In this document: positions 2 through 16,341 of the stretch, piece after piece
Numbering within the stretch: the stretch's first letter is position 1
Layout: each line of letters starts with the position of its first letter
Source: Candidatus Hydrothermarchaeum profundi
Lineage (GTDB): Archaea > Hydrothermarchaeota > Hydrothermarchaeia > Hydrothermarchaeales > Hydrothermarchaeaceae
Direction of reading: 5' to 3'
Assembly: GCA_002011125.2 (NCBI GenBank)
Contig: MTMF02000009.1
Span: 1,512,989-1,576,988, forward strand
DNA length: 64,000 nt
Notes under the pieces: generated by a model
Database searches by the model: none
The model's input: the letters and a program-made list of their open reading frames with translations, nothing else
Told to the model about the DNA's origin: nothing
Program-made: the position numbers and the translations under genes

Positions 2-769
2 ATTGTTTACGATTATGATTTTGAAGAGACATCTTCGGAGTTAGTTCAGGCTTCAATACAGGACGTATCAAATAGCTTGGAAAAGAGCAATGAAGGAGTG
101 GGGGTTTCTATCTCATCTGCAAGCAAAAGCATCCTGAATGCCTCTCTCGGAATAATGGATGCAGGGCAAAAGGTGAAAGACGCGGCTCAAAACGTTAGGG
201 CTACAGCTGAAGAACTTGACAGAACCTCTGAGGAACTGCTTTCAGCTTCAAAGTTCCAAAAAGATGCAAGCGAATATTTAAAAGAGGCTGCTTCTACCTT
301 CTCTTTATGGGCGGATGTATATAGCTATAATGGTAGCTCTCTGCCTGGAAAGAGCACGTTCCTTTCAGCTGTAGATAACATTGACAATGCTGCAGAAAAG
401 CTTGAGAGTTCTTCAATAAAACTAGCGGAGTCATCCGGCACCCTAACCTTAGCTACAAATAATTTAAAAAGTACTTCATCGAATCTCAATGGAACCGGTT
501 TATATTTAGCAACAACTGGAGAGAGCTTGGAAAAAACGGGTAATAGTTTAATGGGGATGCATAATCATTTAGGAGATTTCATGAGTTATATCTCCGCACC
601 AGTAAAAGAACTTCAGAGTAGTATGAGTATAATTTCAGATACCACAAGAAACATCAAAACAGTATCTTATGCTATTGTCGGGTATCTAATAATAGCCCAC
701 CTTATATTACTTGGAGTAGGTATAGCTATTATTATAATAGAAATGAATCTTTTTTATCCAGCTAGGTAG
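2..769 (+). CDS. Heptad-repeat coiled-coil membrane protein (5'-truncated)
   Basis: Frame is open from base 2 (IVYDYDFEE...) into ORF 77..769; Ser/Ala/Leu heptad repeats and a C-terminal hydrophobic helix. Confidence 0.6.
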   Translation: MVYDYDFEETSSELVQASIQDVSNSLEKSNEGVGVSISSASKSILNASLGIMDAGQKVKDAAQNVRATAEELDRTSEELLSASKFQKDASEYLKEAASTFSLWADVYSYNGSSLPGKSTFLSAVDNIDNAAEKLESSSIKLAESSGTLTLATNNLKSTSSNLNGTGLYLATTGESLEKTGNSLMGMHNHLGDFMSYISAPVKELQSSMSIISDTTRNIKTVSYAIVGYLIIAHLILLGVGIAIIIIEMNLFYPAR

Positions 770-5067: not shown

Positions 5068-7782
5068 ATGAAAAATATGAAAAAACTGCTAATAATGGCG
5101 ATTTTTATCTTTTTTATCCAGCCTGCTTATGGTATATCTTGCCCGAAAAATGTTCATATGCTTACTCCGGATTATAACTTCGCTGATGGAGTCTTGGTAT
5201 TTAAGTATCTTGATATGGATGTGTCGGCAGGCGGCGTACAGGATAAAGTAACTACTAAGCCTAGTGAATTACTTACCGGAGAAGTAAATTGGATATGGGG
5301 CCCTAACTGTCCTGAATGCTTGGTATATGTCAATTCTTTTGGCTCATGGGATCTTACTTCCCCAGTAACCGAGATATTCTCAGGATATAAAGGTGGAGTT
5401 ACTTCTACAGTTAAGATTCCTTTCTCATTCAAAGCACCAGCTACTCCGGGCACATATAGATTTAGAATTATATTTGCGTTTGACAAGGGACCATCTAGTG
5501 ATTTCCATGCTTCAAATCTTTGCAGCCAGGTAGAATGTGAAGAAAAGGGGGAATGTCATATCCTCATTGCTGAAGGAGAGGTTATCGTTACTGAGCCTGG
5601 GGTCAATAATACTTTACCTCCTTCTATTGATATAATAAGTCCTATTTCAACTTCTGTTTCGGGAATAGTGACCACAGAAGTAGGATCAGTAATAACAATC
5701 AATGCTAAGGCAGATAAGCCTGTGAATTTTTCAGTTGAGATAGACGGCAATAAGGTTTCTGACATTCTGCCTTACAGCTGGAACACCTTTAATCTCTCAG
5801 AAGGAAGTCATACTATAGCGGTTATCGGTAGAGACAACATAGGGAATGTAGTAAGAAAGGAAATTACAGTAATTCTTACTAATACAACGTTATCGCTGGG
5901 CCAGCAGCCTATATTATTATGGAGCTATGAAGCAATTGGAGAAGTAAACTCTATTGATGTTTCACCAGACGGAAAGTATATCGCTGCAGGCACTAGTGTT
6001 GGGGTCTTTTATCTATTCGGAAATAATGGGGAAGTAATATTAGATTCCAAATTTCTAAGGGGAGTAAGAAAGACGGCTATATCCTCTGGTGGAGAATACA
6101 TAGCATTAAGTACGGAGAATGTTCTATATTATCTTCAGAAAAATGGAACGATCCTGTGGAACACTTCTTTTCCCGTAGCAGTAAACAGTATATCTATAAC
6201 TCCAGACGGAGAGTTTGTAGCAGTAGGATCTGGAAACATCATAAAATATTTTGATAAAAATGGAGTAGAACTTTGGAGCTATTCAACATCCAATAATATA
6301 AATGACGTTTCAATATCTTCTGATGGGGAATATATAGCCGCAGCCTCTGGCAATGTTATCTATTACTTAAAAGGAGACGGCTCGCTAGACTGGACTTTTT
6401 CTGCTTCAAGAGAACTTAAGGATTTATCAATTACGTCTGACGGGGCCTTTATTGCTGCGACAACTGAAAATACCCTATATTACTTAGACAAAGTTGCATC
6501 AATATTGTGGAATTATTCTGGAAATAATTTTAAAAGCGTTACAGTTGCTTCGAATGGAGAGATAATCACCGTTACCTCTGGATCAACAATAATTCTTCTG
6601 GAGAGAAGAGGCAGAGTAGTTTCTAGATTCCTAGCAGACGGTGAAATAACTCTTACAGATCTTTCTTCACAAGGGGATTATCTTGCTTATGCTTCCAGTA
6701 AAAAACTCTATTTTCTAGATAATTCAGGCCGGAGGATAGTCGCGACGCCCAGTATTCCTAGATACCTGTTGCCTACTGGAGTGGCAGTGCTTTTTTTAGC
6801 GATTGTAGTTTTACTACTACGCCGTAAGATGAGAGTGGTCGTCAAAAAAGAAGAGAAGCCATTAAAAATCGAGTCTAGTGAGATCAGAATATCTAAGGAA
6901 AAAGAGCCATTACGGGAGCAGTACGGCAAAGTTCTTGTAAAAGTTGTTAATTCAAGAACAAAAAAACCTATCCCCCTAGCTTCTGTTTCGCTTAGAGGTC
7001 TTGTAAAAACAACAGATGAGAGAGGAGAAGCGTCCTTTGAGAACGTGCCATTAAGAAGGGCAGAATTATCGGTTGTAAAAGAGGAATATGAAGAACAAAT
7101 TGAAGTATTTGACGTAGATATCGAGAATAAGATAATTATAGAAATGAACCCAAGAAGCATACTTACTCAAGAGCAACGTGAAGAAATCCAGAGGAGTCTA
7201 GAGATTCTTAAAGGTGCATATGAAAAAGTCTCAACGCTAGATACGTGTATACCTAACTATTATGTTTCAGTAGCCGAGAGAATAGCTAAGATAATTGAAA
7301 TGGCAGGTTATTCGCCTGAAGTTTTTAAGTCCGAGAAGGAGCTGGAAAAAGTACTTGATTATTTAATCACAAAATTTCAGGATATATGCAAAGAACTTTC
7401 TGAAATAATGGTAGATTGGAGGAATATAAAGATTTATAAAGCGGCCGGAAAGCTTGATCCTAGTAACTGTATGGCCGGAGAGATTGATGAGAAAGTTGAT
7501 GAACTTCAAGATCTCGACGCATTAGCTGGACGAGGATTACTGTATCTTAGGGAGGAGATACGGAGCGTAGACAAGCTTATTATATCAAAAATGGATGAGC
7601 TTACCGTTCTGCCTGTATCCAGTTTATGGAAGATTTCTAAATATCTGGCTGATGAAGCATCTAGTAAGGAGAAAGTTGAAAAAGCAATTAATGTATTTCT
7701 CTCCAAGATAATATTAAACTATTCCAAAGATATGTTAGAGAATGATTCCATCGTAAAGAGACTAAAATTTGCTCTTGTCTAA
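5068..7782 (+). CDS. Single-pass surface protein: Cys-rich N domain, Ig-like domain, about 7 WD40/PQQ-like blades, TM helix, large cytoplasmic region
   Basis: Signal peptide; repeats W-x-Y...V-x-I-S-x-D-G-x-Y-I-A; TM GVAVLFLAIVVLLL followed by RRK; then a carboxypeptidase-regulatory-like beta domain and a helical C terminus. Confidence 0.75.
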   Translation: MKNMKKLLIMAIFIFFIQPAYGISCPKNVHMLTPDYNFADGVLVFKYLDMDVSAGGVQDKVTTKPSELLTGEVNWIWGPNCPECLVYVNSFGSWDLTSPVTEIFSGYKGGVTSTVKIPFSFKAPATPGTYRFRIIFAFDKGPSSDFHASNLCSQVECEEKGECHILIAEGEVIVTEPGVNNTLPPSIDIISPISTSVSGIVTTEVGSVITINAKADKPVNFSVEIDGNKVSDILPYSWNTFNLSEGSHTIAVIGRDNIGNVVRKEITVILTNTTLSLGQQPILLWSYEAIGEVNSIDVSPDGKYIAAGTSVGVFYLFGNNGEVILDSKFLRGVRKTAISSGGEYIALSTENVLYYLQKNGTILWNTSFPVAVNSISITPDGEFVAVGSGNIIKYFDKNGVELWSYSTSNNINDVSISSDGEYIAAASGNVIYYLKGDGSLDWTFSASRELKDLSITSDGAFIAATTENTLYYLDKVASILWNYSGNNFKSVTVASNGEIITVTSGSTIILLERRGRVVSRFLADGEITLTDLSSQGDYLAYASSKKLYFLDNSGRRIVATPSIPRYLLPTGVAVLFLAIVVLLLRRKMRVVVKKEEKPLKIESSEIRISKEKEPLREQYGKVLVKVVNSRTKKPIPLASVSLRGLVKTTDERGEASFENVPLRRAELSVVKEEYEEQIEVFDVDIENKIIIEMNPRSILTQEQREEIQRSLEILKGAYEKVSTLDTCIPNYYVSVAERIAKIIEMAGYSPEVFKSEKELEKVLDYLITKFQDICKELSEIMVDWRNIKIYKAAGKLDPSNCMAGEIDEKVDELQDLDALAGRGLLYLREEIRSVDKLIISKMDELTVLPVSSLWKISKYLADEASSKEKVEKAINVFLSKIILNYSKDMLENDSIVKRLKFALV

Positions 7783-9800
7783 TCTTCGCCTATCACGACA
7801 TCGCCTACACTGGATTCTCTATCATCTTGTTTAAATCTCTGCATTCCAATAGTTACTCTGCCCATAAACCAGATAAAAGTTAAAACTAGAATACTGCCAT
7901 ATGCAACAAAAGCAATAAAAATCTGGTTCTTTTGTTTGTAAAGAATTTGTAGTTCTTCGGCAATGCGTTCTGCGTCTTTAATCTCGCCTGCTTTTCTATA
8001 CAGACTTTCCGCCGTTTCATAATTTTTTATTGCGCTTTCGTAGTTAGTAGAAACTTCATCATAGTCAAGAGGATTGTATACGAAATAAAATGTTCCTTCT
8101 CCCTCACCCAACTGGAACATCTTGCTTCTAGCATTACGTAACATTATTTCTGCCTTTTTAACATCTTCAGATGCAGAGAGCAATGATTTCTCATATCTAT
8201 CCTGCAATAACTGTTGTGTCTGTTGGTATTCTCTTGCTTTTTTCTCATCACCTGAATATTTAGAGATCTCTGACATTCTCTTGTATAATAACGATGCCAC
8301 TTTATAGTCGTTCTCCTTGGTTTCTGCGGCTTTATTTTCTAGATCCTTTAAGACATTCTTTGCAAATCTTTGCCAGAGATTTTGAGCTGCCGTCACGCTT
8401 TTACTTGATTGCAATTTGAGTTCTGCGTCCTCTAGGTTCTCATCTCCGATTCTAATCTTATTTAAAGCACTATTAGCTTTAATTATTGCATCAGCAGAAC
8501 TGATTAATTTTCCATCTATAAGATCTTTCTCAGAGTCTTCCAAATAACTTAGAAGTGACCTCACTCCACTATACACCGACATCACCATCGCGATCTTACG
8601 AATCTCGGTTTTCCCCTTAGCATTTTCGAGAAGGAGAAGGGTATCCTGTATTAGAGACTTCTCTTCTTGGCTATCCGTTGAAGCACTCAGATTTTTAAGA
8701 TAGCCGGTGGCTTCTTCAATTCCTGGAAAATAGACAGTGACATACAGATAAATGGTTTGTTTTCCAGCGTAGTGAGTTTTTAGGTCATATGCCCAGTCCT
8801 TATCCCCTAAACTGGCATCTGGAGGTAGAGTAATACTAAAGCTATAATTTTCAGATTCTCCTGGAGCTATATAATCATCGCCCTTAATGCTTACCCATCC
8901 TTTTGGACCATTGGTAAGAGAAAAACTTAATCCTTCTATGGGAGTAAATCCACCAACTTCGCTAATTGTTATTATTCTAGTAGTAGTGTCCTTTCCCGGC
9001 TCGAAGGTGATCTTACCCATATCTATTGTTTTTTTGCTTATTTCCATTTTCGGTTGTGGTATAGTATATTTAGCTTCTTGAGGCTCTGACGTGATCACAC
9101 TTGTAGAAGTAATGATTGGTTTAATATTATATGTGCCGGGTTTTAGTCCCTTTTGGGGTATAGTGACGTTTACTTGGATGTTTTTGGATTCAAGAGGATC
9201 AAGGTCCCCTATCTCCCCAGAGTATAGAAGTTCTGCAGGACCGATCTCCGCTATTAAGACTGTAACGTTAGAAGCGTTTTTATATCCATAATATTCCTCA
9301 ACTGTTAATATTCGTTTAAAGGATGTTCCAGCCTTGACATTCCCCCAGTCTACTTTGTCCCAGATAGCCCTTATTGTTGGATTGGGATAATTTATCTTTA
9401 CTGTGAATCCTGTAATATTCTGAGACGCTAAATTAGTGCCGGTTATTGAGAGAACTCCGCCAGTATATGTCTTTTCTTCCATAGAGGAAGATGCATAGAA
9501 TGTTACTGTTATATCCTTGTGCGTGTTTGGATTAAGATAGAAACTCTTTGAAGCATCATCTATTGAAGCCGTAATACCGTCAATACCATAGAATGATACG
9601 CTTAAATCCTGAATATTCCTACCAGATTCATTGCCTAAAGTTACTCTTATAACCCTCGTTAGCGAGAAAGTTTCCCCCTTTGGTTTATCAAAATCATAGA
9701 TAAGTTCTTTATCTCCTAGAAAACTTGCAGTTGCATCTGCATATGTAAGAGGAACTAACAAAAGGAAACAGAATAATATAATTAAATATTTAATACTCAC
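7779..9800 (-). CDS. Secreted membrane-anchored protein (Ig-like domains, helical region, C-terminal TM)
   Basis: Signal peptide, beta-rich N half, helical C half, TM IFIAFVAYGSILVLTFIWF, short tail. Confidence 0.7.
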   Translation of the reverse strand: MSIKYLIILFCFLLLVPLTYADATASFLGDKELIYDFDKPKGETFSLTRVIRVTLGNESGRNIQDLSVSFYGIDGITASIDDASKSFYLNPNTHKDITVTFYASSSMEEKTYTGGVLSITGTNLASQNITGFTVKINYPNPTIRAIWDKVDWGNVKAGTSFKRILTVEEYYGYKNASNVTVLIAEIGPAELLYSGEIGDLDPLESKNIQVNVTIPQKGLKPGTYNIKPIITSTSVITSEPQEAKYTIPQPKMEISKKTIDMGKITFEPGKDTTTRIITISEVGGFTPIEGLSFSLTNGPKGWVSIKGDDYIAPGESENYSFSITLPPDASLGDKDWAYDLKTHYAGKQTIYLYVTVYFPGIEEATGYLKNLSASTDSQEEKSLIQDTLLLLENAKGKTEIRKIAMVMSVYSGVRSLLSYLEDSEKDLIDGKLISSADAIIKANSALNKIRIGDENLEDAELKLQSSKSVTAAQNLWQRFAKNVLKDLENKAAETKENDYKVASLLYKRMSEISKYSGDEKKAREYQQTQQLLQDRYEKSLLSASEDVKKAEIMLRNARSKMFQLGEGEGTFYFVYNPLDYDEVSTNYESAIKNYETAESLYRKAGEIKDAERIAEELQILYKQKNQIFIAFVAYGSILVLTFIWFMGRVTIGMQRFKQDDRESSVGDVVIGED

Positions 9801-10767
9801 TTTGGCTCACCTGCACTAACTCGTTTCCCAAAAAATATTCGTAAGTATCTATGTTCCAAGCTTTTATTCTGTGTATGAGGTAAACTGTTATTATAATTAG
9901 TAGAACTGTAATTCCACTAAAATATGCTGCGAGTCCTAGAAGTAAAGAATTCATTTGTTTTTGGATTTCTACAAGATTATTCTCAACTTTTATTTCCCAC
10001 GCTGATTCATGGTGGTACTGGTAGTACTTTTGAGCTTCCTTGAATTTTATCAAAGCACTTCTGGCTAGAACATATGATTTTATTTTTGAAGGAAAATATC
10101 CCCCCCGGAGTTCTGCTGATTTTTTATATTCGTCTTCAGCCTGCGAAAAAAATGAATTTGCTCTTTGCATGTCTTTATCGTAGCTTTCTTTTAAACTCGC
10201 CTCTTTTATCCGATAATTTGTTGCCTCAAGGGTTTCGCCAGCGGCCTCAAAAGCTCGCGATGCAGCTCCGTAAAAATCTATCTTCCTTTTTGTAATTTCT
10301 GTTGTGTCAGCTTCCCTTACGTAGGCATTAGCTTGTGTAGTCAATAAGTCGATAACCGCCTGCCTAGCAGAGTTTACAAGGTCTGTGGCTTCAACTCCAA
10401 AGTTCTCTTTCATTCTATCCAATTGAGGGATATCCTCAGTTGCCAGCTTTTTGGCTATCTCAACTGATTTTTCATGATCCTCCGAGATATCCGACACTGC
10501 AAGGAGATACGCTTTATCAAACTGTAAAAGGAATTCTTTAGTGGCTATTGAAAAATCGGCCACATACTTAGGGCAGGAGGCTCTTTCTCGTCCGTATAAT
10601 ATTAGGAGAATGTCTTGTTTCACATCATTTAAAAGAGGATATTTATCGAATGCTTGAGATTGAAGTCCCCTTATCTCGGAAGCTAAGCTGGTACAACTCT
10701 GTGCAAAAACAGGGGATGAGAAAGTTAGAATTATCAATGCAAATGTTAAGATTATTTTAAGGTCCAT
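9790..10767 (-). CDS. Secreted membrane-anchored helical protein, paralogous to the C half of 7779..9800
   Basis: Start MDLKIILTF at 10767 after SD AGGTG; signal peptide ending VFA-Q; C-terminal TM and short tail. Confidence 0.7.
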   Translation of the reverse strand: MDLKIILTFALIILTFSSPVFAQSCTSLASEIRGLQSQAFDKYPLLNDVKQDILLILYGRERASCPKYVADFSIATKEFLLQFDKAYLLAVSDISEDHEKSVEIAKKLATEDIPQLDRMKENFGVEATDLVNSARQAVIDLLTTQANAYVREADTTEITKRKIDFYGAASRAFEAAGETLEATNYRIKEASLKESYDKDMQRANSFFSQAEDEYKKSAELRGGYFPSKIKSYVLARSALIKFKEAQKYYQYHHESAWEIKVENNLVEIQKQMNSLLLGLAAYFSGITVLLIIITVYLIHRIKAWNIDTYEYFLGNELVQVSQSEY

Positions 10768-10819
10768 ACACCTGAAAGCATTTATATTTAACGTCTTTAT
10801 ATAATTTAAGTGGAATTTC
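10768..10819. promoter_or_regulatory. Overlapping divergent TATA promoters
   Basis: 52-bp gap with GAAA-GCA-TTTATATTTA (+, about 10774-10790) and TTATATAA (-, about 10797-10804), each about 30 bp from a start codon. Confidence 0.55.
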
Positions 10820-12046
10820 ATGCCTTATGCATTTATAGGTGTAGGACAATGCGGCGGAGGTATAGTTGATGCCGCCTTTTATGACAAAAATATGTTTAAA
10901 GTAGCGGTTCCGATAGCTATAAACTCCGCCACAATGGATCTTCAAACGTTGAAACACATAGGGAGAGAATATTGGGTAGGGATGTCTAGGGATAGGGGTT
11001 TCATTGACGGTACTATAGATGGATTTGAACACTTTGTAAGTGGAGGATATGGTAAGAATAGAGCTAAAGCTTATGAGGACGCCTTAAAATATGAGGATAC
11101 AATAAGGGATATAATAATTGAGCGCGCAAGAGTAAAGGGTGCAACAGATGATAGAGGAGTAGGCATCCCTGTCGCCTTTATAGTTTTTGGGCTTGGGGGA
11201 GGTACTGGCAGTGGCGCCTCTCCCGTTATAGCTAAGGTCTTACGGGAGATGGGGATCCCGGTAATTGCTGTTGTGGTTTTGCCGGCTAGTCATGAGGGTG
11301 GGCTTACTGCTAAGAATGCAGTAGAAAGTCTTAATATTCTAGTAGAACATGTAGATTCAGTAGTTCTGGTTGACAATCAAAAATTGGCCTATGCTGAGAG
11401 CGCAGAAACCCTTTATCAACGTTACAATGAATATGTAGCGAGAAGCCTAAGGGATATTGTGATAGGTACTGCGCTTGAGAGGATAAATCCTGCAGATTTT
11501 GAGGGATATGCGCCTGTGATTGATTTGAAGGATATGATTGCCGCTACCTCTTTTACATTAGGTAAGAAGACTAAGCCTGGATTTGCGTGCCTTGGGAGAG
11601 CTAGTGAAAAGACTAGAGACCTACTGCACTATATACTACCAATAGGAGGCTATAAAGAAATAGACGTTATAAGTCTGCTTTATAGAGCTTTTATGAAGCT
11701 AACTGTCGAGGACGTTAGAGCTGAAGACGCTGAAAAGAATCTCGTGTTATTAAGATTACCACCTGTCTATATAACTAAATCTGGAAAGATTAATACTAGC
11801 ATGGCTAAGCAGGTTATGGAGGAGAGGTCCAGATTAGGGGAGACGCACTTCGGCGTTTCTCTCACTAAGAGGAATCTCGCTACGGCTACTGTACTTTTAA
11901 CTTATAGGCCAAACCAGATTGCAAGACTAAAGGTGCTCAGCCAGCTCGCAGGGCAATATACAGATATTTCTCTTAAAGTACTTGAGGAATATGAAAAGGA
12001 TTTTGCTCTCGAAGAGTTACCTGAGGAGATAGAGGTAGAAGAATGA
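10820..12046 (+). CDS. Tubulin/FtsZ-superfamily GTPase A (divergent, CetZ-like)
   Basis: IGVGQCGGGI, GGYGKN, GLGGGTGSG signature, VVLVDNQ, T7-like VIDLKD, acidic tail. Confidence 0.9.
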   Translation: MPYAFIGVGQCGGGIVDAAFYDKNMFKVAVPIAINSATMDLQTLKHIGREYWVGMSRDRGFIDGTIDGFEHFVSGGYGKNRAKAYEDALKYEDTIRDIIIERARVKGATDDRGVGIPVAFIVFGLGGGTGSGASPVIAKVLREMGIPVIAVVVLPASHEGGLTAKNAVESLNILVEHVDSVVLVDNQKLAYAESAETLYQRYNEYVARSLRDIVIGTALERINPADFEGYAPVIDLKDMIAATSFTLGKKTKPGFACLGRASEKTRDLLHYILPIGGYKEIDVISLLYRAFMKLTVEDVRAEDAEKNLVLLRLPPVYITKSGKINTSMAKQVMEERSRLGETHFGVSLTKRNLATATVLLTYRPNQIARLKVLSQLAGQYTDISLKVLEEYEKDFALEELPEEIEVEE

Positions 12047-13482
12047 ATGAATATGCTCTCGCTACTCTGACTATAATAATTATACTTGGAGCGGGATTTG
12101 GACTTTTGATTTATTTTGGTATTGATGTTGTGACATATTTTGGTGTAGGGCTTGTTGTCGCCTCTATCGTAGGAAGTGTTATCTATACATGGTGGAGAAG
12201 TCAGAGCGATAAGACTATTGAGCGTCTTAAATTGGAGATTTTGACAAAAATTAAAAGGGAATTGGAAGACGTTGAGAGCCTTGTTGAAGAGGCGTCAAAA
12301 ATCACAGATATGGCTCCTATCTCTACGAAATTAACACTCTTGAGAGAGAACCTAGTAAAGCAGAAATTTTTCGATAACCATTTCAATATCAATAAGACTA
12401 TAAGGAAATATACCCTTACTTTTATTGAGCAAGAGGCCAGAAAAGTAGAGCAGAGGCTTAGAAGCTTAGAAGCCCTAGCAGCGGGAGCATGTAGACCTGA
12501 GCTTGAGAAATTTATAAAGGACCTGCAATCCAAGCTTGAAAAACTTTTAGATGCGGGGTATGGTATTGAAGAAGATATTAGCGAGTTTAATATAATTGCT
12601 GCACAGCCATCGCAGAGTTTGAGAGAGATGATAGAGAAGAAAATGAGGCTCTCTGAAAAATTCGAGGAGGTTCTTGATAAATGCGTTGAAGAGGCGGTTT
12701 CAGTTGCTACGGCTAGCAGGAGATTCGGCGACACCTCGACCTTAGAGTCCAGCGTGCTAGAGGTAAAGAAGATGAAGAGCGACTTTGATAACGCAGTTTT
12801 TTTACTGGTTAAGGCGAGGAATGAGTTGAAGGATATTTTGAGAGATGTCTTCTCTAGGCAACATAGTAAGCTTATCTCACATGTTAAAGAGATTTATAGC
12901 CTCTTAAGCGCCAATCATGTAGGCGAGAAATATAAGACGGTCATTAGAGATATAAGAGACGAACTTTTATCTCTTAATGACCCAGGAAGAATTCAAGAGT
13001 TAAGGGAACTTGAAAGAGAATTCAAGAACAAAACAGCATACGTTGTAACCGATCTTTTCGAAGAAATGGTTGAGTTAGAAAAAAACATAAATATCTATAA
13101 ACCACATGAGAAAGTTTGGACTTCTGACAAGAAGATCCCCGAACTAGTTAACAAAGTAAACCCTTCAGACGAACTTGAAGTATTCGCAAAGAACGCTAGA
13201 AAAGCTCTCAAGTGCCTTGTGAATCAACTTGAGAAAGATGTCGGTTTTCTTAAAATAATAGAGAACTACGCTAAAGTGGAACCTATTATTAGTAGGAAAT
13301 TAAATGAGAGGGGAGTACTAACTATTTCAGATTTGAATGTAAAGTATGCAGACAAGTTTATGTTACTATACAGTCTGAAAAATGAGGATACAACCTATGA
13401 AGAGGATCCCCCCACATTAACTCTTAAATCTAAGGTGGCAGCAGAGTTGAAGAATAAGCTATTAAAGAAGAAAAGGTCTTAG
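12043..13482 (+). CDS. Membrane-anchored long coiled-coil protein
   Basis: Two N-terminal TM helices, about 370 aa of charged heptads, small C-terminal domain that may be a winged helix; ATGA-coupled to GTPase A. Confidence 0.75.
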   Translation: MNEYALATLTIIIILGAGFGLLIYFGIDVVTYFGVGLVVASIVGSVIYTWWRSQSDKTIERLKLEILTKIKRELEDVESLVEEASKITDMAPISTKLTLLRENLVKQKFFDNHFNINKTIRKYTLTFIEQEARKVEQRLRSLEALAAGACRPELEKFIKDLQSKLEKLLDAGYGIEEDISEFNIIAAQPSQSLREMIEKKMRLSEKFEEVLDKCVEEAVSVATASRRFGDTSTLESSVLEVKKMKSDFDNAVFLLVKARNELKDILRDVFSRQHSKLISHVKEIYSLLSANHVGEKYKTVIRDIRDELLSLNDPGRIQELRELEREFKNKTAYVVTDLFEEMVELEKNINIYKPHEKVWTSDKKIPELVNKVNPSDELEVFAKNARKALKCLVNQLEKDVGFLKIIENYAKVEPIISRKLNERGVLTISDLNVKYADKFMLLYSLKNEDTTYEEDPPTLTLKSKVAAELKNKLLKKKRS

Positions 13483-13484
13483 TC

Positions 13485-14837
13485 ATGGAGGATTATTCTA
13501 CTAGGTGGAGCATTATAGCCTCCGGCGAAGGAGCCAACCGCATCTCTTTCTTATATTACGCGAAATATAGAAATCCCGCAATTGAGGATAGGGTTCTTCT
13601 CCTTAATACAACTACGGCCGATGTAAAACCTGAAAAAACTTTTGAATATATGTTAACTAAGAACCCCCGATTTCAGGAAATCTATGAAAAGATAAAGCGA
13701 GAAAAGATATGTATTTTTGGTAAATCGCCTTCTGGAGCCGGAAATAACTGGAAAGTAGGTGAAAACGAAGCAAGAGACGATTTCGACACTATAAGAAGAT
13801 ACATAGAGAACCTTAAGCTTGGAGGGCGGGATGTAATATTCGGGATATCTACTCTAGGCGGCGGAACTGGTAATGGATCTCTACCCTTTATAATATATCA
13901 ACTGAAATATGGGAGTGAGGCTTTAATACTTGGGCAGAACAGTTTTATAGCTTTAGGGATAATGCCCTATGATTTCGAAGCTCCTCAGAGATTTTTTAAT
14001 ACCATCTGTGGCATCGCTCGGCTTTTAAAGTATGGTCCGAGGGGAGTGCAGAATGCGGATATGTTATTATTAGCTGATAACACTCAAATTGAGAGACTTC
14101 TCGGAATCACAGAGTCTTTCAAGGAGGAGAGATACTACAGAATAAATGAAGAGATAATTAAAGCCATAAACATGATGATAGCTCCTGGAGGTCCTGGGGC
14201 AAGGTCAACTATTGATGTAGCTGATTATTATCAGCTTCCAAGCAATATAGGAACTTATCATTTTACTCCTTGTATGAGTCTTGGAAATGATCCGGAAGTA
14301 TTTGGAATAGAGACCGCTTTGGAAACGGCTATGGATCGCCCTATGGCCCCGGTAGACCCAAAAACAGCTACTATGGCATATGTAATTGTTGTGGCACCTA
14401 AAAAATATGTTGAAAATGGCACCTTTACTCAGGAAGGGTTAGAGGATATAACGAGAGATTGGGCAGTCAAAAACTTAGCTGGGCGTAGAGGAGGTATTTT
14501 GAGATATTCCAGCCTGGTTGCCAGCAGAGAGATAGAAACCTTGGATGTTATGATATTACTAGGAGGCTTCAGTCTGAAGGACATATTCTCTAAAGCTCTT
14601 CAGAAATATTACGATTTTAAGGATAGCTTGGAAATAGAAGGAAAAGAAGTAGAGCTTGCTGACGAAAACAACCCAAGAATCAAGGTGAGAATAAATATCG
14701 ATGATATAGAAACTATAGAATCTCGGATAAAGGAGTATATTAGGCTTACAGAAGATAGAATTAAAAGAGCTAGAGAAGAAGAAATTGATTTAAAAGAAAA
14801 GCTCTTAGAGTGGGGATTTGGAAAATCCACTCCCTAA
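13485..14837 (+). CDS. Tubulin/FtsZ-superfamily GTPase B (tubulin-like motifs)
   Basis: GAGNNW, TLGGGTGNG, NADMLLLADNT, STIDVAD, YHF; degenerate first loop ASGEGA. Confidence 0.88.
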   Translation: MEDYSTRWSIIASGEGANRISFLYYAKYRNPAIEDRVLLLNTTTADVKPEKTFEYMLTKNPRFQEIYEKIKREKICIFGKSPSGAGNNWKVGENEARDDFDTIRRYIENLKLGGRDVIFGISTLGGGTGNGSLPFIIYQLKYGSEALILGQNSFIALGIMPYDFEAPQRFFNTICGIARLLKYGPRGVQNADMLLLADNTQIERLLGITESFKEERYYRINEEIIKAINMMIAPGGPGARSTIDVADYYQLPSNIGTYHFTPCMSLGNDPEVFGIETALETAMDRPMAPVDPKTATMAYVIVVAPKKYVENGTFTQEGLEDITRDWAVKNLAGRRGGILRYSSLVASREIETLDVMILLGGFSLKDIFSKALQKYYDFKDSLEIEGKEVELADENNPRIKVRINIDDIETIESRIKEYIRLTEDRIKRAREEEIDLKEKLLEWGFGKSTP

Positions 14838-14839
14838 TG

Positions 14840-15301
14840 TTACATTGCCCCAATTATGTCGCCTCTTGTTATGATCCCTACAAGCTTTCCTCTCTCTACA
14901 ACCGGGAGCCTGTTTATATTGTGAGATGACATCAGTCTAGCAGCCTCTTCTAGTGAGGCTGTAGATTTAATGGTGATAACTTTTTTAGTCATTATATCTC
15001 CTACCCTCATTGACGAAGCCTTCTTAATTTTTTCTAGAGCCTCCTTTAATTCAAGCTTCATTCGCACCGGAAGTTCAAGCAAGTCAAAGGGAGATGGCAA
15101 CAGCGTGGTTATACTCATGTAAGGTGGCTCTAACAGTTTCATTATATCTGTCTCGCTGATAACTCCTATTACTTTACTATTTGAGACTACAGGGGCTCCG
15201 CTTATTTTTTTCTTCCTTAATATTTTCGCTGCGTCGTAGATTGAATCTTCTGGAGTAAATACGACGACATGCTTATTCATAACATCTTTCACTTTAACCA
15301 C
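14840..15301 (-). CDS. CBS-pair protein
   Basis: Two CBS motifs (ISGAPVV...GVISETD; INRLPVV...GIITRGD); GTG start after SD GGAGGA. Confidence 0.9.
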   Translation of the reverse strand: MVKVKDVMNKHVVVFTPEDSIYDAAKILRKKKISGAPVVSNSKVIGVISETDIMKLLEPPYMSITTLLPSPFDLLELPVRMKLELKEALEKIKKASSMRVGDIMTKKVITIKSTASLEEAARLMSSHNINRLPVVERGKLVGIITRGDIIGAM

Positions 15302-15312
15302 TGCTATTCCTC

Positions 15313-16341
15313 CTAGGGGTGTATCCCTATGTTTCCTAATCCTTCCCACTCTTTGTATCCCATCATTATATTCATGTTTTGAACTGCTTGCCCAGAGGCA
15401 CCTTTAACGAGGTTGTCTAGGGCTGAAACTATTATGAGCCTCTTCCTCTCTTTATCTACTTCAAAGCATCCTATGTCGCAATAGTTAGATCCTCTAACAG
15501 CGCTAAGTCTTGGTATTTCACCTGCGCTTAATATCCTTATGAAAGGCTCATCATCGTAGAATTCTTGGTAAAGGTTTCTAATGGTTTCACTGTCAATCTC
15601 TTTCCGTAGAAAGCAGTGTATTGTACTTGAGATCCCTCTAATTACAGGGACAAGATGAGGGACAAAAGATAACTTTACTCTTTCATTAAATACTCTCAGC
15701 TCCTGTTCCATCTCAGGTAGATGCCGATGGTATATAACATTGTAGGGTAAGACACTTTCAGCTGCATTGGGGAAATGGGTCTTCTCCTTTGGAGATGCTC
15801 CTGCTCCAGAAATGCCGCTTTTAGAGTCTACAGCAATCTTTTCTACATCGATTATATTTTCTTTTATTATAGGAGCTAAAGCTAATATTACGCTAGTCGG
15901 ATAACATCCAGGGTTTGCCACAAAAGAAGATGCCTTTATTTTGTTGCGGTAAAGTTCAGGAAGTCCATAAACTGCTTTTAGTTCGGGATGCTCATGTTTA
16001 ATGCCATAGTACCTCTCATATATTCTGACATCTCTAAATCTGAAATCACCGCTCAGGTCAACGAATTTCGTTTCTAACTTTAAAAGTACACTTGCTAGTT
16101 TCATTGAGAAGCCATGCGGTGTTGCTAAGAAGACAAAATCACATTTTCTAGCTACTTCCTCTGGACTAAGGTTCTCAAATTTTAGGTCAAGTATGTCTCT
16201 CAAGTGAGGATGAACCGTATAAACCTTTTCTGTTGAAGTTCTTGAAGTTGCACAGGTAATTTCGCATTTTCTATGTTTTGAAAGTATCCTTAAGAGTTCT
16301 CCACCCGTGTATCCGGTTGCGCCTATGATTCCGACTTTCAT
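15313..16341 (-). CDS. argC: N-acetyl-gamma-glutamyl-phosphate reductase
   Basis: GATGYTG, ANPGCYPT, SGISGAG, DNLVKGASGQAVQNMN. Confidence 0.96.
   Translation of the reverse strand: MKVGIIGATGYTGGELLRILSKHRKCEITCATSRTSTEKVYTVHPHLRDILDLKFENLSPEEVARKCDFVFLATPHGFSMKLASVLLKLETKFVDLSGDFRFRDVRIYERYYGIKHEHPELKAVYGLPELYRNKIKASSFVANPGCYPTSVILALAPIIKENIIDVEKIAVDSKSGISGAGASPKEKTHFPNAAESVLPYNVIYHRHLPEMEQELRVFNERVKLSFVPHLVPVIRGISSTIHCFLRKEIDSETIRNLYQEFYDDEPFIRILSAGEIPRLSAVRGSNYCDIGCFEVDKERKRLIIVSALDNLVKGASGQAVQNMNIMMGYKEWEGLGNIGIHP

Follow-up and report, generated by a model that had tools for sequence, protein, structure and literature searches.

CetZ proteins, among them Haloferax volcanii CetZ1 (4b46) and CetZ2 (4b45) and Methanosaeta CetZ (3zid), are archaeal, and the parts of PMC9856176 and PMC13556191 cited here link them to cell shape and the envelope. 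Their gene neighbourhoods, as given in the cited part of PMC9856176, hold cofactor/nucleotide biosynthesis and type IV pilus genes. For 'non-canonical' archaeal proteins of the tubulin superfamily, Brown and Duggin (2023; PMC9856176) use a 'non-canonical TSF' bin, and in the parts cited the surveys (PMC9856176, PMC9871819) sort such proteins but give them no function. 'Halo.Tub' tubulin paralogues in Halobacterota and CetZ-like proteins in Altiarchaeota are reported by Santana-Molina et al. (2023; PMC9871819), who in the sections cited also mention copies in quasi-tandem and neighbours with coiled coils, and who judge the molecular systems involved to be unknown. Here we analyse a locus in a 64,000-nucleotide stretch of the Candidatus Hydrothermarchaeum profundi genome (contig MTMF02000009.1, positions 1,512,989 to 1,576,988; hereafter the window). 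Unlike the CetZ neighbourhoods just named, it combines two tubulin/FtsZ-superfamily genes, TubA and TubB, with genes for four membrane or secreted proteins, which we call CC, S1, S2 and P.

With moderate confidence, we read these six genes as an archaea-specific conserved module for a membrane-spanning cytoskeletal assembly of the tubulin family, and not as ordinary FtsZ or CetZ paralogues. Its grounds are the structure and synteny of the genes, their co-occurrence, the placement of the proteins in families, the conservation of motifs and the predicted topology. Judged by their sequences, TubA and TubB represent two old lineages within the tubulin/FtsZ superfamily that are separate from each other, TubA being CetZ-like and TubB more like FtsZ. 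A full-text literature search, which did not cover the supplementary accession lists of PMC9871819, found no published description of the six-gene module. The superfamily is known and its paralogues have been glimpsed; what appears to be undescribed is the module, with its partners, topology and range.

Locus layout and conservation of the gene set

The features of the locus, in window coordinates, are as follows.

5068-7782, plus strand: P, a 904-amino acid (aa) single-pass membrane protein (open reading frame (ORF) list, Pfam, hydropathy)
7779-9800, minus strand: S2, a 673-aa secreted protein with a C-terminal transmembrane (TM) anchor and a cytoplasmic tail (ORF list, Pfam, hydropathy)
9790-10767, minus strand: S1, a 325-aa secreted helical protein (longest frame 9790-10821, start set at the ATG at 10767)
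10768-10819, no strand: divergent spacer between S1 and TubA, 52 bp, with two TATA-like A/T runs (sequence reading)
10820-12046, plus strand: TubA, a 408-aa predicted GTPase of the tubulin/FtsZ superfamily with a CetZ-like insertion
12043-13482, plus strand: CC, a 479-aa membrane protein with an N-terminal TM hairpin and a heptad-rich cytoplasmic helical part
13485-14837, plus strand: TubB, a 450-aa predicted divergent GTPase of the tubulin/FtsZ superfamily with a C-terminal extension ending in EWGF

An earlier note, made from the DNA letters of the window, had singled out the five genes from S2 to TubB, and the ORF list agrees with it on their positions and strands. The module extends further than it had supposed: P, a sixth conserved gene, lies just outside the interval described, and was missed together with the occurrence of the module in Halobacteria. 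The start of S1 was set downstream of that of the longest frame because the signal peptides conserved among S1 orthologues begin there. The tight coupling reported for the plus-strand genes is seen at the junctions, where the TubA stop and the CC start share ATGA and CC is separated from TubB by 2 nt. S1 and S2 overlap by 11 nt, and P is convergent to S2 with both stop codons overlapping. The spacer between S1 and TubA, noted before as a divergent TATA region, is presumably a bidirectional archaeal promoter region. Orthologous S1/TubA spacers are 53-140 nt long and carry A/T-rich TATA-like runs in 15 of 15 cases, and are likewise candidate promoters. Among the sequencing runs listed as containing this stretch, three are of DNA and none is of RNA, which has no bearing on expression.

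Relatives of TubA, CC and TubB were searched for in 40 genomes, 34 of them of the same order, with TubB orthologues defined by an E value below 1e-100. TubB is present in 23 of the 40, all within this order, and these 23 also have CC; 22 of them have TubA, and in the 23rd the contig begins inside TubA, leaving a fragment. The searches detected neither TubA nor CC nor TubB in the remaining 17 relatives, several of which are 96-98% complete; these include all three genomes of genus g3. The order TubA-CC-TubB of the window recurs in 20 of 20 fetched Hydrothermarchaeales loci, wherever the contig reaches, and because all of them keep it we do not regard the arrangement as chance. Of these 20 loci, 15 show S1 (contig ends cut off the remaining five), 13 show S2 and nine show P, and most loci with enough contig have the three genes in the order of the window. 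Two loci have no P despite at least 1.5 kb of sequence beyond S2, and in both genomes of genus g12 a profile search placed the P helical domain (described below) elsewhere in the genome.

A wider scan used a pattern from the TubB alignment on one genome per species (185,579 species) and gave 51 TubB loci, the ORFs of which were scored with hidden Markov models of the six families. The loci comprise 23 of Hydrothermarchaeota type (records titled Candidatus Hydrothermarchaeota, Hydrothermarchaeales or Pyrohabitans), 19 from Halobacteria, five from metagenome-assembled genomes (MAGs) titled 'Micrarchaeota', three from Altiarchaeales and one from an Archaeoglobaceae MAG. CC lies directly upstream of TubB in 47 of the 51, the misses being one contig-start cut and the three Altiarchaeales; TubA was found in 42 loci, P in 33, and S1 and S2 in 32 each. 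Haloarchaeal carriers include cultured Haloarcula, Halorubrum, Natrinema, Halorubellus, Halobellus, Natronomonas and Halobiforma. All six families stand on one strand in 15 of the 19 haloarchaeal loci, in the order TubA-X-CC-TubB-P-S1-S2. Gene X, which encodes 419 aa, has no Pfam family, no match in the genome of the window and no real similarity to CC. Conserved synteny and strict co-occurrence show that the five genes first noted form a conserved functional unit.

Several haloarchaeal loci carry a third tubulin-like gene, 'Tub3', upstream of TubA, so that Tub3, TubA and TubB stand in a row, which recalls the quasi-tandem 'Halo.Tub' paralogues. The 'Halo.Tub' and CetZ-like groups of PMC9871819 are likely, if unproven, to be TubA, TubB or Tub3; the parts of that paper cited here describe no six-gene module, P, S1, S2, membrane topology or occurrence in Hydrothermarchaeota. 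In the Natrinema locus (L077), the one haloarchaeal locus scanned with Pfam, a bPH_2/zinc-ribbon protein is encoded upstream. The Natrinema and Halobiforma genomes have a fourth PF00091 gene about 23-25 kb downstream of TubB. A complete six-family copy lies on the 742-kb plasmid p1 of Natrinema sp. 74 (NZ_CP175699.1), consistent with lateral spread among haloarchaea.

Family placement of TubA and TubB

By PF00091 score, signature loops and two-domain fold, both TubA and TubB belong to the tubulin/FtsZ superfamily. TubA matches PF00091 with 86.5 bits (cut-off 33), and its orthologues in the fetched loci show 60-86% identity. TubB reaches 32.4 bits in hmmscan, just below the cut-off, and 34.4 bits in the genome scan; Natrinema TubB scores 37.4 bits, and a precomputed PF00091 match is recorded for 120 of 120 TubB relatives among the matches listed. 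Motifs were compared in alignments of 18 orthologues at first and then of 36 TubA and 41 TubB sequences. Invariant or nearly so in these are the TubA loops GVGQCGG (T1), GGGTGSG (T4) and IDLKD (T7) and the TubB loops SGEGAN (T1), GGGTGNG (T4) and IDVAD (T7), and T1, T3, T4, T5, T6 and T7 are kept across phyla in both families. Because the nucleotide-binding loops and the acidic pair of T7 are retained in TubA and TubB alike, we infer that both are GTP-dependent polymerising GTPases.

Among solved structures, the best match of TubA is Haloferax CetZ1 (4b46), with an end-to-end alignment (78.7 bits, E 5e-21); weaker matches are TubZ (RepX; E 1e-4) and tubulins (E about 5e-4). TubA shares with CetZ a T1 loop of the form GxGQxGG and an insertion after the T7 region, which TubB lacks. 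It differs from CetZ in forming its own clade (see below), in having no match to the CetZ_C domain, and in scores 4-9 times lower than those of true CetZ proteins. The best PDB sequence matches of TubB are archaeal FtsZ (E 3e-8), and its T3, T5 and T7 motifs (GAGxN, PxxFE and xIDxAD) are FtsZ-like; it departs from FtsZ in the altered T1 loop and in a C-terminal extension with an extra hairpin and helix and a conserved EWGF end, a WGF tail in place of the FtsZ C-terminal peptide. Apparent in-frame stops inside TubB of two loci (L020 and L024) were rejected as such; they are natural stop codons directly after the WGF motif. Tubulins rank under FtsZ and CetZ in PDB sequence scores for TubA and TubB alike. 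An AlphaFold2 (AF2) model of TubB, built from the 18-orthologue alignment, has a predicted local distance difference test score (pLDDT) of 62. In Foldseek it matches CetZ1, FtsZ, CetZ and tubulins with probability 1.0 over 366-443 alignment columns, with template modelling scores of 0.27-0.58 that are low because the model is poor.

Neither protein looks like a canonical FtsZ, as the earlier note had suspected. On the FtsZ equivalog model TIGR00065 (cut-off 295.2) TubA scores 85.9 bits and TubB 35.4 bits, compared with 451 and 397 bits for the two true FtsZ genes of the same genome, which lie outside the module, as does its one SepF gene. Neither TubA nor TubB matches CetZ_C (PF21011) at E <= 0.1, a domain that scores 97.8 bits in another tubulin-like protein of this genome (L006). 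In the genome (2.19 Mb, 19 contigs, 97.65% complete), seven genes match PF00091: TubA, TubB, two FtsZ genes and a cluster of three CetZ-like genes.

We built a tree of 54 tubulin-superfamily proteins from seven genomes and six further Hydrothermarchaeales loci, sampling the genome of the window, five other genomes with TubB (Natrinema versiforme, Halobiforma, an Archaeoglobaceae MAG, a 'Micrarchaeota'-titled MAG and an Altiarchaeum MAG) and three proteins of one Haloarcula locus. Five groups are resolved, with support in the Shimodaira-Hasegawa-like approximate likelihood ratio test (SH-aLRT) of 100 for TubA, 98 for TubB, 100 for FtsZ1 plus FtsZ2, 94 for CetZ and 100 for haloarchaeal Tub3. The CetZ clade includes the Natrinema CetZ1 orthologue (692 bits to 4b46) and the genome's own CetZ (360 bits), and TubA and TubB both fall outside it and outside the FtsZ1/2 clade. 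TubA groups with CetZ and FtsZ (SH-aLRT 89), away from TubB. Constraining TubA and TubB to one clade costs 10.3 log-likelihood units, with a p value of 0.034 in the approximately unbiased test, for a group that was named after the tree had been seen. The TubA and TubB subtrees contain the same lineages in similar branching order.

These placements leave little room for the idea that TubA and TubB are ordinary CetZ or FtsZ paralogues that stand beside unrelated membrane-protein genes by chance, which we consider hardly credible. The database names of the members ('hypothetical protein', 'cell division GTPase FtsZ', 'FtsZ/tubulin family protein', 'tubulin-like protein CetZ') would suit it, and so would CetZ1 as the best solved relative of TubA. 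However, synteny is kept across several archaeal lineages, the TubA and TubB clades are separate and well supported, the 78.7 bits of TubA to CetZ1 compare with 360-692 bits for true CetZ, and the FtsZ and CetZ_C models give the low scores and missing matches described above.

A further comparison concerns multi-gene sets around non-canonical GTPases. Makarova and Koonin in 2010 reportedly described an FtsZl1 system, in which such a GTPase belongs to a multi-gene set predicted to act on membranes. The reported partners of FtsZl1 comprise a vWA protein, a second GTPase and proteins of the OmpA type. No partner of these types is found among the Pfam matches at our locus, and against Tubulin_2 (PF13809; cut-off 27 bits), which we take to be FtsZl1, TubA scores 18 bits over residues 113-144 only, around the T4 loop, and TubB has no match.

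Two tubulin-family genes in one operon that always co-occur also recall BtubA/BtubB and alpha/beta-tubulin, and TubA and TubB could be an obligate heteropolymer pair of this kind that forms mixed protofilaments, in line with the co-polymerisation at the core of the earlier note. The two occur together in 23 of 23 genomes (counting one contig-cut fragment) and either alone in none of the 17 others; they share an operon with tight coupling of TubA, CC and TubB, and each is single-copy in the Hydrothermarchaeales genomes searched. GTP-pocket and T7 motifs are complete in both, so either could complete the active site of the other. Nevertheless, TubA and TubB are not close paralogues of each other as heterodimeric tubulins are, in a tree drawn without tubulin references, and the grouping of TubA with CetZ and FtsZ and the cost of the one-clade constraint speak against sister paralogy. 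An hhalign comparison of the two families aligned only 166 columns. CC always lies between TubA and TubB, and in Altiarchaeum the two are on separate contigs. Known archaeal multi-tubulin sets, in the parts of the sources cited, are described with distinct roles (FtsZ1/FtsZ2, 10.1101/2020.06.04.133736; CetZ1/CetZ2, PMC13556191). The lack of sister paralogy and the dispersed Altiarchaeum genes thus weigh mildly against an obligate pair of the alpha/beta kind, with which co-occurrence and coupling are compatible, and we regard such a pair as unlikely. A prediction of the TubA-TubB complex, run without controls, scored 0.00, which is no verdict and weighs neither way.

A role in TubZ-type segregation of DNA or plasmids, or another mobile-element function, is very improbable. 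It would account for the patchy distribution across phyla and the one plasmid-borne copy, and TubZ is a distant PDB match of TubA. On the other side, none of the six proteins has a DNA-binding Pfam family of the kind expected of a TubR-type adaptor, four of them are membrane or secreted proteins, and the flanks of the module within the window are purD, a carbamoyltransferase gene, argC and similar housekeeping genes. The agreement between the TubA and TubB subtrees also argues against it, as does a search with PADLOC defence models, in which none of the six module proteins has a match.

Membrane and secreted partners

CC had been described as a coiled coil with two TM segments. Heptad-like windows cover 33% of its residues, compared with a shuffle mean of 4% and a maximum of 18% (30 shuffles scored with a crude measure of our own), in keeping with the coiled-coil part of that description. 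The hydropathy scan calls one TM segment, and the second (residues about 30-50) was read by eye. Past the putative TM hairpin follow about 420 aa of heptad-rich helical sequence. CC has no match to a Pfam family and no usable feature match in the ESM Atlas, where its best structural neighbours are unnamed archaeal clusters (TM-score 0.62 by query), which we take as a lead only.

EzrA is a membrane tether of FtsZ, with an N-terminal TM segment and a long cytoplasmic helical-repeat domain. CC resembles it in having an N-terminal TM hairpin and a heptad-rich helical part; the likeness is one of architecture only, as CC has no relation to any Pfam family, EzrA included.

S1 and S2 had been proposed to be secreted and C-terminally anchored, and hydropathy agrees: each has one N-terminal signal-like segment and one C-terminal TM segment. 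The further description of both as helical holds for S1 and for the C-terminal half of S2, to which S1 is homologous (hhalign of S1 against S2 373-664, probability 97.7, E 2e-12). It fails for the N-terminal half of S2, which is predicted to consist of Ig-like beta domains (weak NEW3 and fn3_5 Pfam matches). S1 is a member of an ESM Atlas cluster of 147 archaeal 'hypothetical proteins', with weak TPR-like neighbours only. Both proteins end in short conserved tails. The motif of S1 is R-x3-W-x2-D-x-Y ... LGNEL, and that of S2 in Hydrothermarchaeales is R-[FW]-x2-D ... G-[DE]-[VI]-[VL], which 14 of 14 aligned orthologues carry; in haloarchaea, forms related to the two motifs can be recognised. 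Because these cytoplasmic tails are conserved on otherwise extracellular proteins, docking to a cytoplasmic partner would be expected. S1 orthologues share a cysteine (in AQxC, for example) 2-4 residues past the point where the signal peptide is predicted to be cleaved, and P orthologues show one as well; the N-termini concerned are encoded in the window at 10690-10767 (minus strand, S1) and 5068-5150 (plus strand, P). The cysteine could be a disulfide or lipid-modification site. A further ORF, cut by the start of the window (2-769, plus strand), encodes a Ser/Ala/Leu-rich protein with a C-terminal TM anchor and an overall architecture like that of S1.

In P, a signal-like segment is followed by an Ig-like region and a PQQ/WD40-like beta-propeller (PQQ_2, 51 bits). 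Its TM segment spans roughly residues 566-584, and beyond this come a basic stretch and some 315 more residues; Pfam adds a weak CarboxypepD_reg match. Conservation across lineages is confined to the part past the TM segment, a beta-sandwich and a helical domain of about 200 aa. An AF2 model of residues 590-904 (29-sequence alignment) has a pLDDT of 92 and a predicted template modelling score of 0.84, and consists of a beta-sandwich and a helical bundle. Foldseek of this model against the PDB recovers the sandwich only (transthyretin-like carboxypeptidase domains, CnaB and similar), and the helical bundle has no PDB counterpart among the matches listed.

A profile of the P helical domain gave 232 representatives (E <= 0.001) among 1.84 billion proteins. 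Among the best 150 of these 232, all 150 have the domain at the C-terminus or no more than about 13 residues short of it, 104 are at least 700 aa long, and none has a TubA- or TubB-like domain fused to the P domain. In 'Micrarchaeota'-titled MAGs, P is cut down to 285 aa (TM segment, sandwich and helical domain) and is encoded directly after TubB. TubA in these MAGs carries a C-terminal fused beta-sandwich of the kind found in P, in one case with a precomputed Pfam PEGA match, and this fusion indirectly suggests that the sandwich works next to TubA.

Possible assembly and role, and neighbouring genes

Hydropathy and the tail motifs predict that TubA, TubB, the helical part of CC and the C-terminal domain of P are cytoplasmic, and that S1, S2 and the propeller of P lie outside. 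This topology fits a membrane-spanning complex, as the idea of a trans-envelope system in the earlier note would have it. Polymerisation, the physical contacts among the proteins and the cellular role of the module are proposals. TubA and TubB would form polymers fastened to the cytoplasmic side of the membrane, with CC (through its TM hairpin) and the cytoplasmic sandwich and helical bundle of P as tethers. The beta-propeller of P and the C-terminally anchored S1 and S2 would make up the outer part of the assembly, and the short conserved cytoplasmic tails of S1 and S2 could couple the outer to the inner part.

Such an assembly most likely has an accessory role in the organisation or remodelling of the envelope, the cell surface or cell shape, and probably does not carry out core cytokinesis, because two FtsZ genes and SepF are encoded elsewhere in the genome and the module is missing from many relatives. 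In its logic, with two tubulin-family proteins in one process and a membrane tether, the module is similar to archaeal FtsZ1/FtsZ2/SepF. It could accordingly be asked whether it is a second, specialised cytokinesis machine that serves as an alternative divisome under some conditions. Tubulin-family GTPases that have membrane tethers and partners outside the cytoplasm follow a logic like that of the bacterial divisome, and the architecture of CC is similar to that of EzrA. We consider this improbable. In addition to the true FtsZ and SepF genes, the distribution is sporadic, with no module detected in 11 of the 34 same-order genomes searched and with 19 haloarchaeal loci among the 51 from 185,579 species, and one copy is on a plasmid.

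For the membrane-spanning assembly that we favour, several observations count on the negative side. The TubB model is mediocre, and the T1 loop of TubB deviates from the G-rich consensus, so that nucleotide binding by TubB is presumed and not certain. The coiled coil of CC is based only on a crude heptad heuristic. The tree is a quick search with long branches and was made without eukaryotic tubulin, artubulin, Odin tubulin, BtubA/B and TubZ. The same-order genomes in which the module was not found include all six of family f8, and the P helical domain was not found in both genomes of genus g5 (one of them 100% complete), though TubA, CC, TubB, S1 and S2 are present there. In Altiarchaeum, TubA, TubB and the P-domain protein are on different contigs, and no CC was seen beside TubB.

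A more far-reaching proposal can be put forward only tentatively, and we think it possible but rather doubtful. The module may be an unrecognised archaeal trans-envelope cytoskeleton, in which the GTP-driven dynamics of two tubulin polymers, neither FtsZ nor CetZ, are relayed through the bitopic P, S1 and S2 to structures outside the membrane (for example the S-layer, appendages of the surface or contacts between cells), which would thereby be positioned or remodelled. It might then be a counterpart of bacterial FtsZ-guided wall synthesis, and would be old, and shared or exchanged among Hydrothermarchaeota, Halobacteria, Archaeoglobi and Altiarchaeales-like lineages.

Two lineages of 'non-canonical' tubulin-superfamily proteins are now defined with fixed partners, and the predicted topology suggests how a cytoplasmic polymer could be linked to the cell surface. 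They also add one case to the record of how frequently dedicated membrane adaptors accompany the recruitment of tubulin-family proteins. The module is present in cultured haloarchaea (Natrinema versiforme JCM 10478, Halobiforma haloterrestris DSM 13078, Halorubrum and Haloarcula), which opens the idea to genetic, imaging and biochemical tests without recourse to the uncultured Hydrothermarchaeota.

Other tubulin-family genes were found outside the module. At 948-954 kb of contig C9, the genome of the window has a second multi-tubulin locus, in which a canonical CetZ gene (360 bits to CetZ1) is followed after 2 nt by a divergent tubulin-like gene of 337 aa. About 1.8 kb further, past a gene with a weak DUF4398 match and a family-2 glycosyltransferase gene, lies a third, very divergent gene that bears CetZ_C. 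The Altiarchaeum MAG (contig G044:C60, 8.7-11.8 kb) has three FtsZ-type PF00091 matches in a row; two of these share one long open frame (706-832 aa), pointing to an FtsZ that is fused or in tandem.

CBS-domain genes stand beside tubulin-like genes at three unrelated places, possibly by chance. One is in the window (14840-15349, minus strand), convergent to TubB. Another (L006:2635-3081, minus strand) is convergent to a divergent CetZ-like gene in the second multi-tubulin locus. In Altiarchaeum, two CBS-domain genes (L063:6230-7751, minus strand) lie upstream of TubB.

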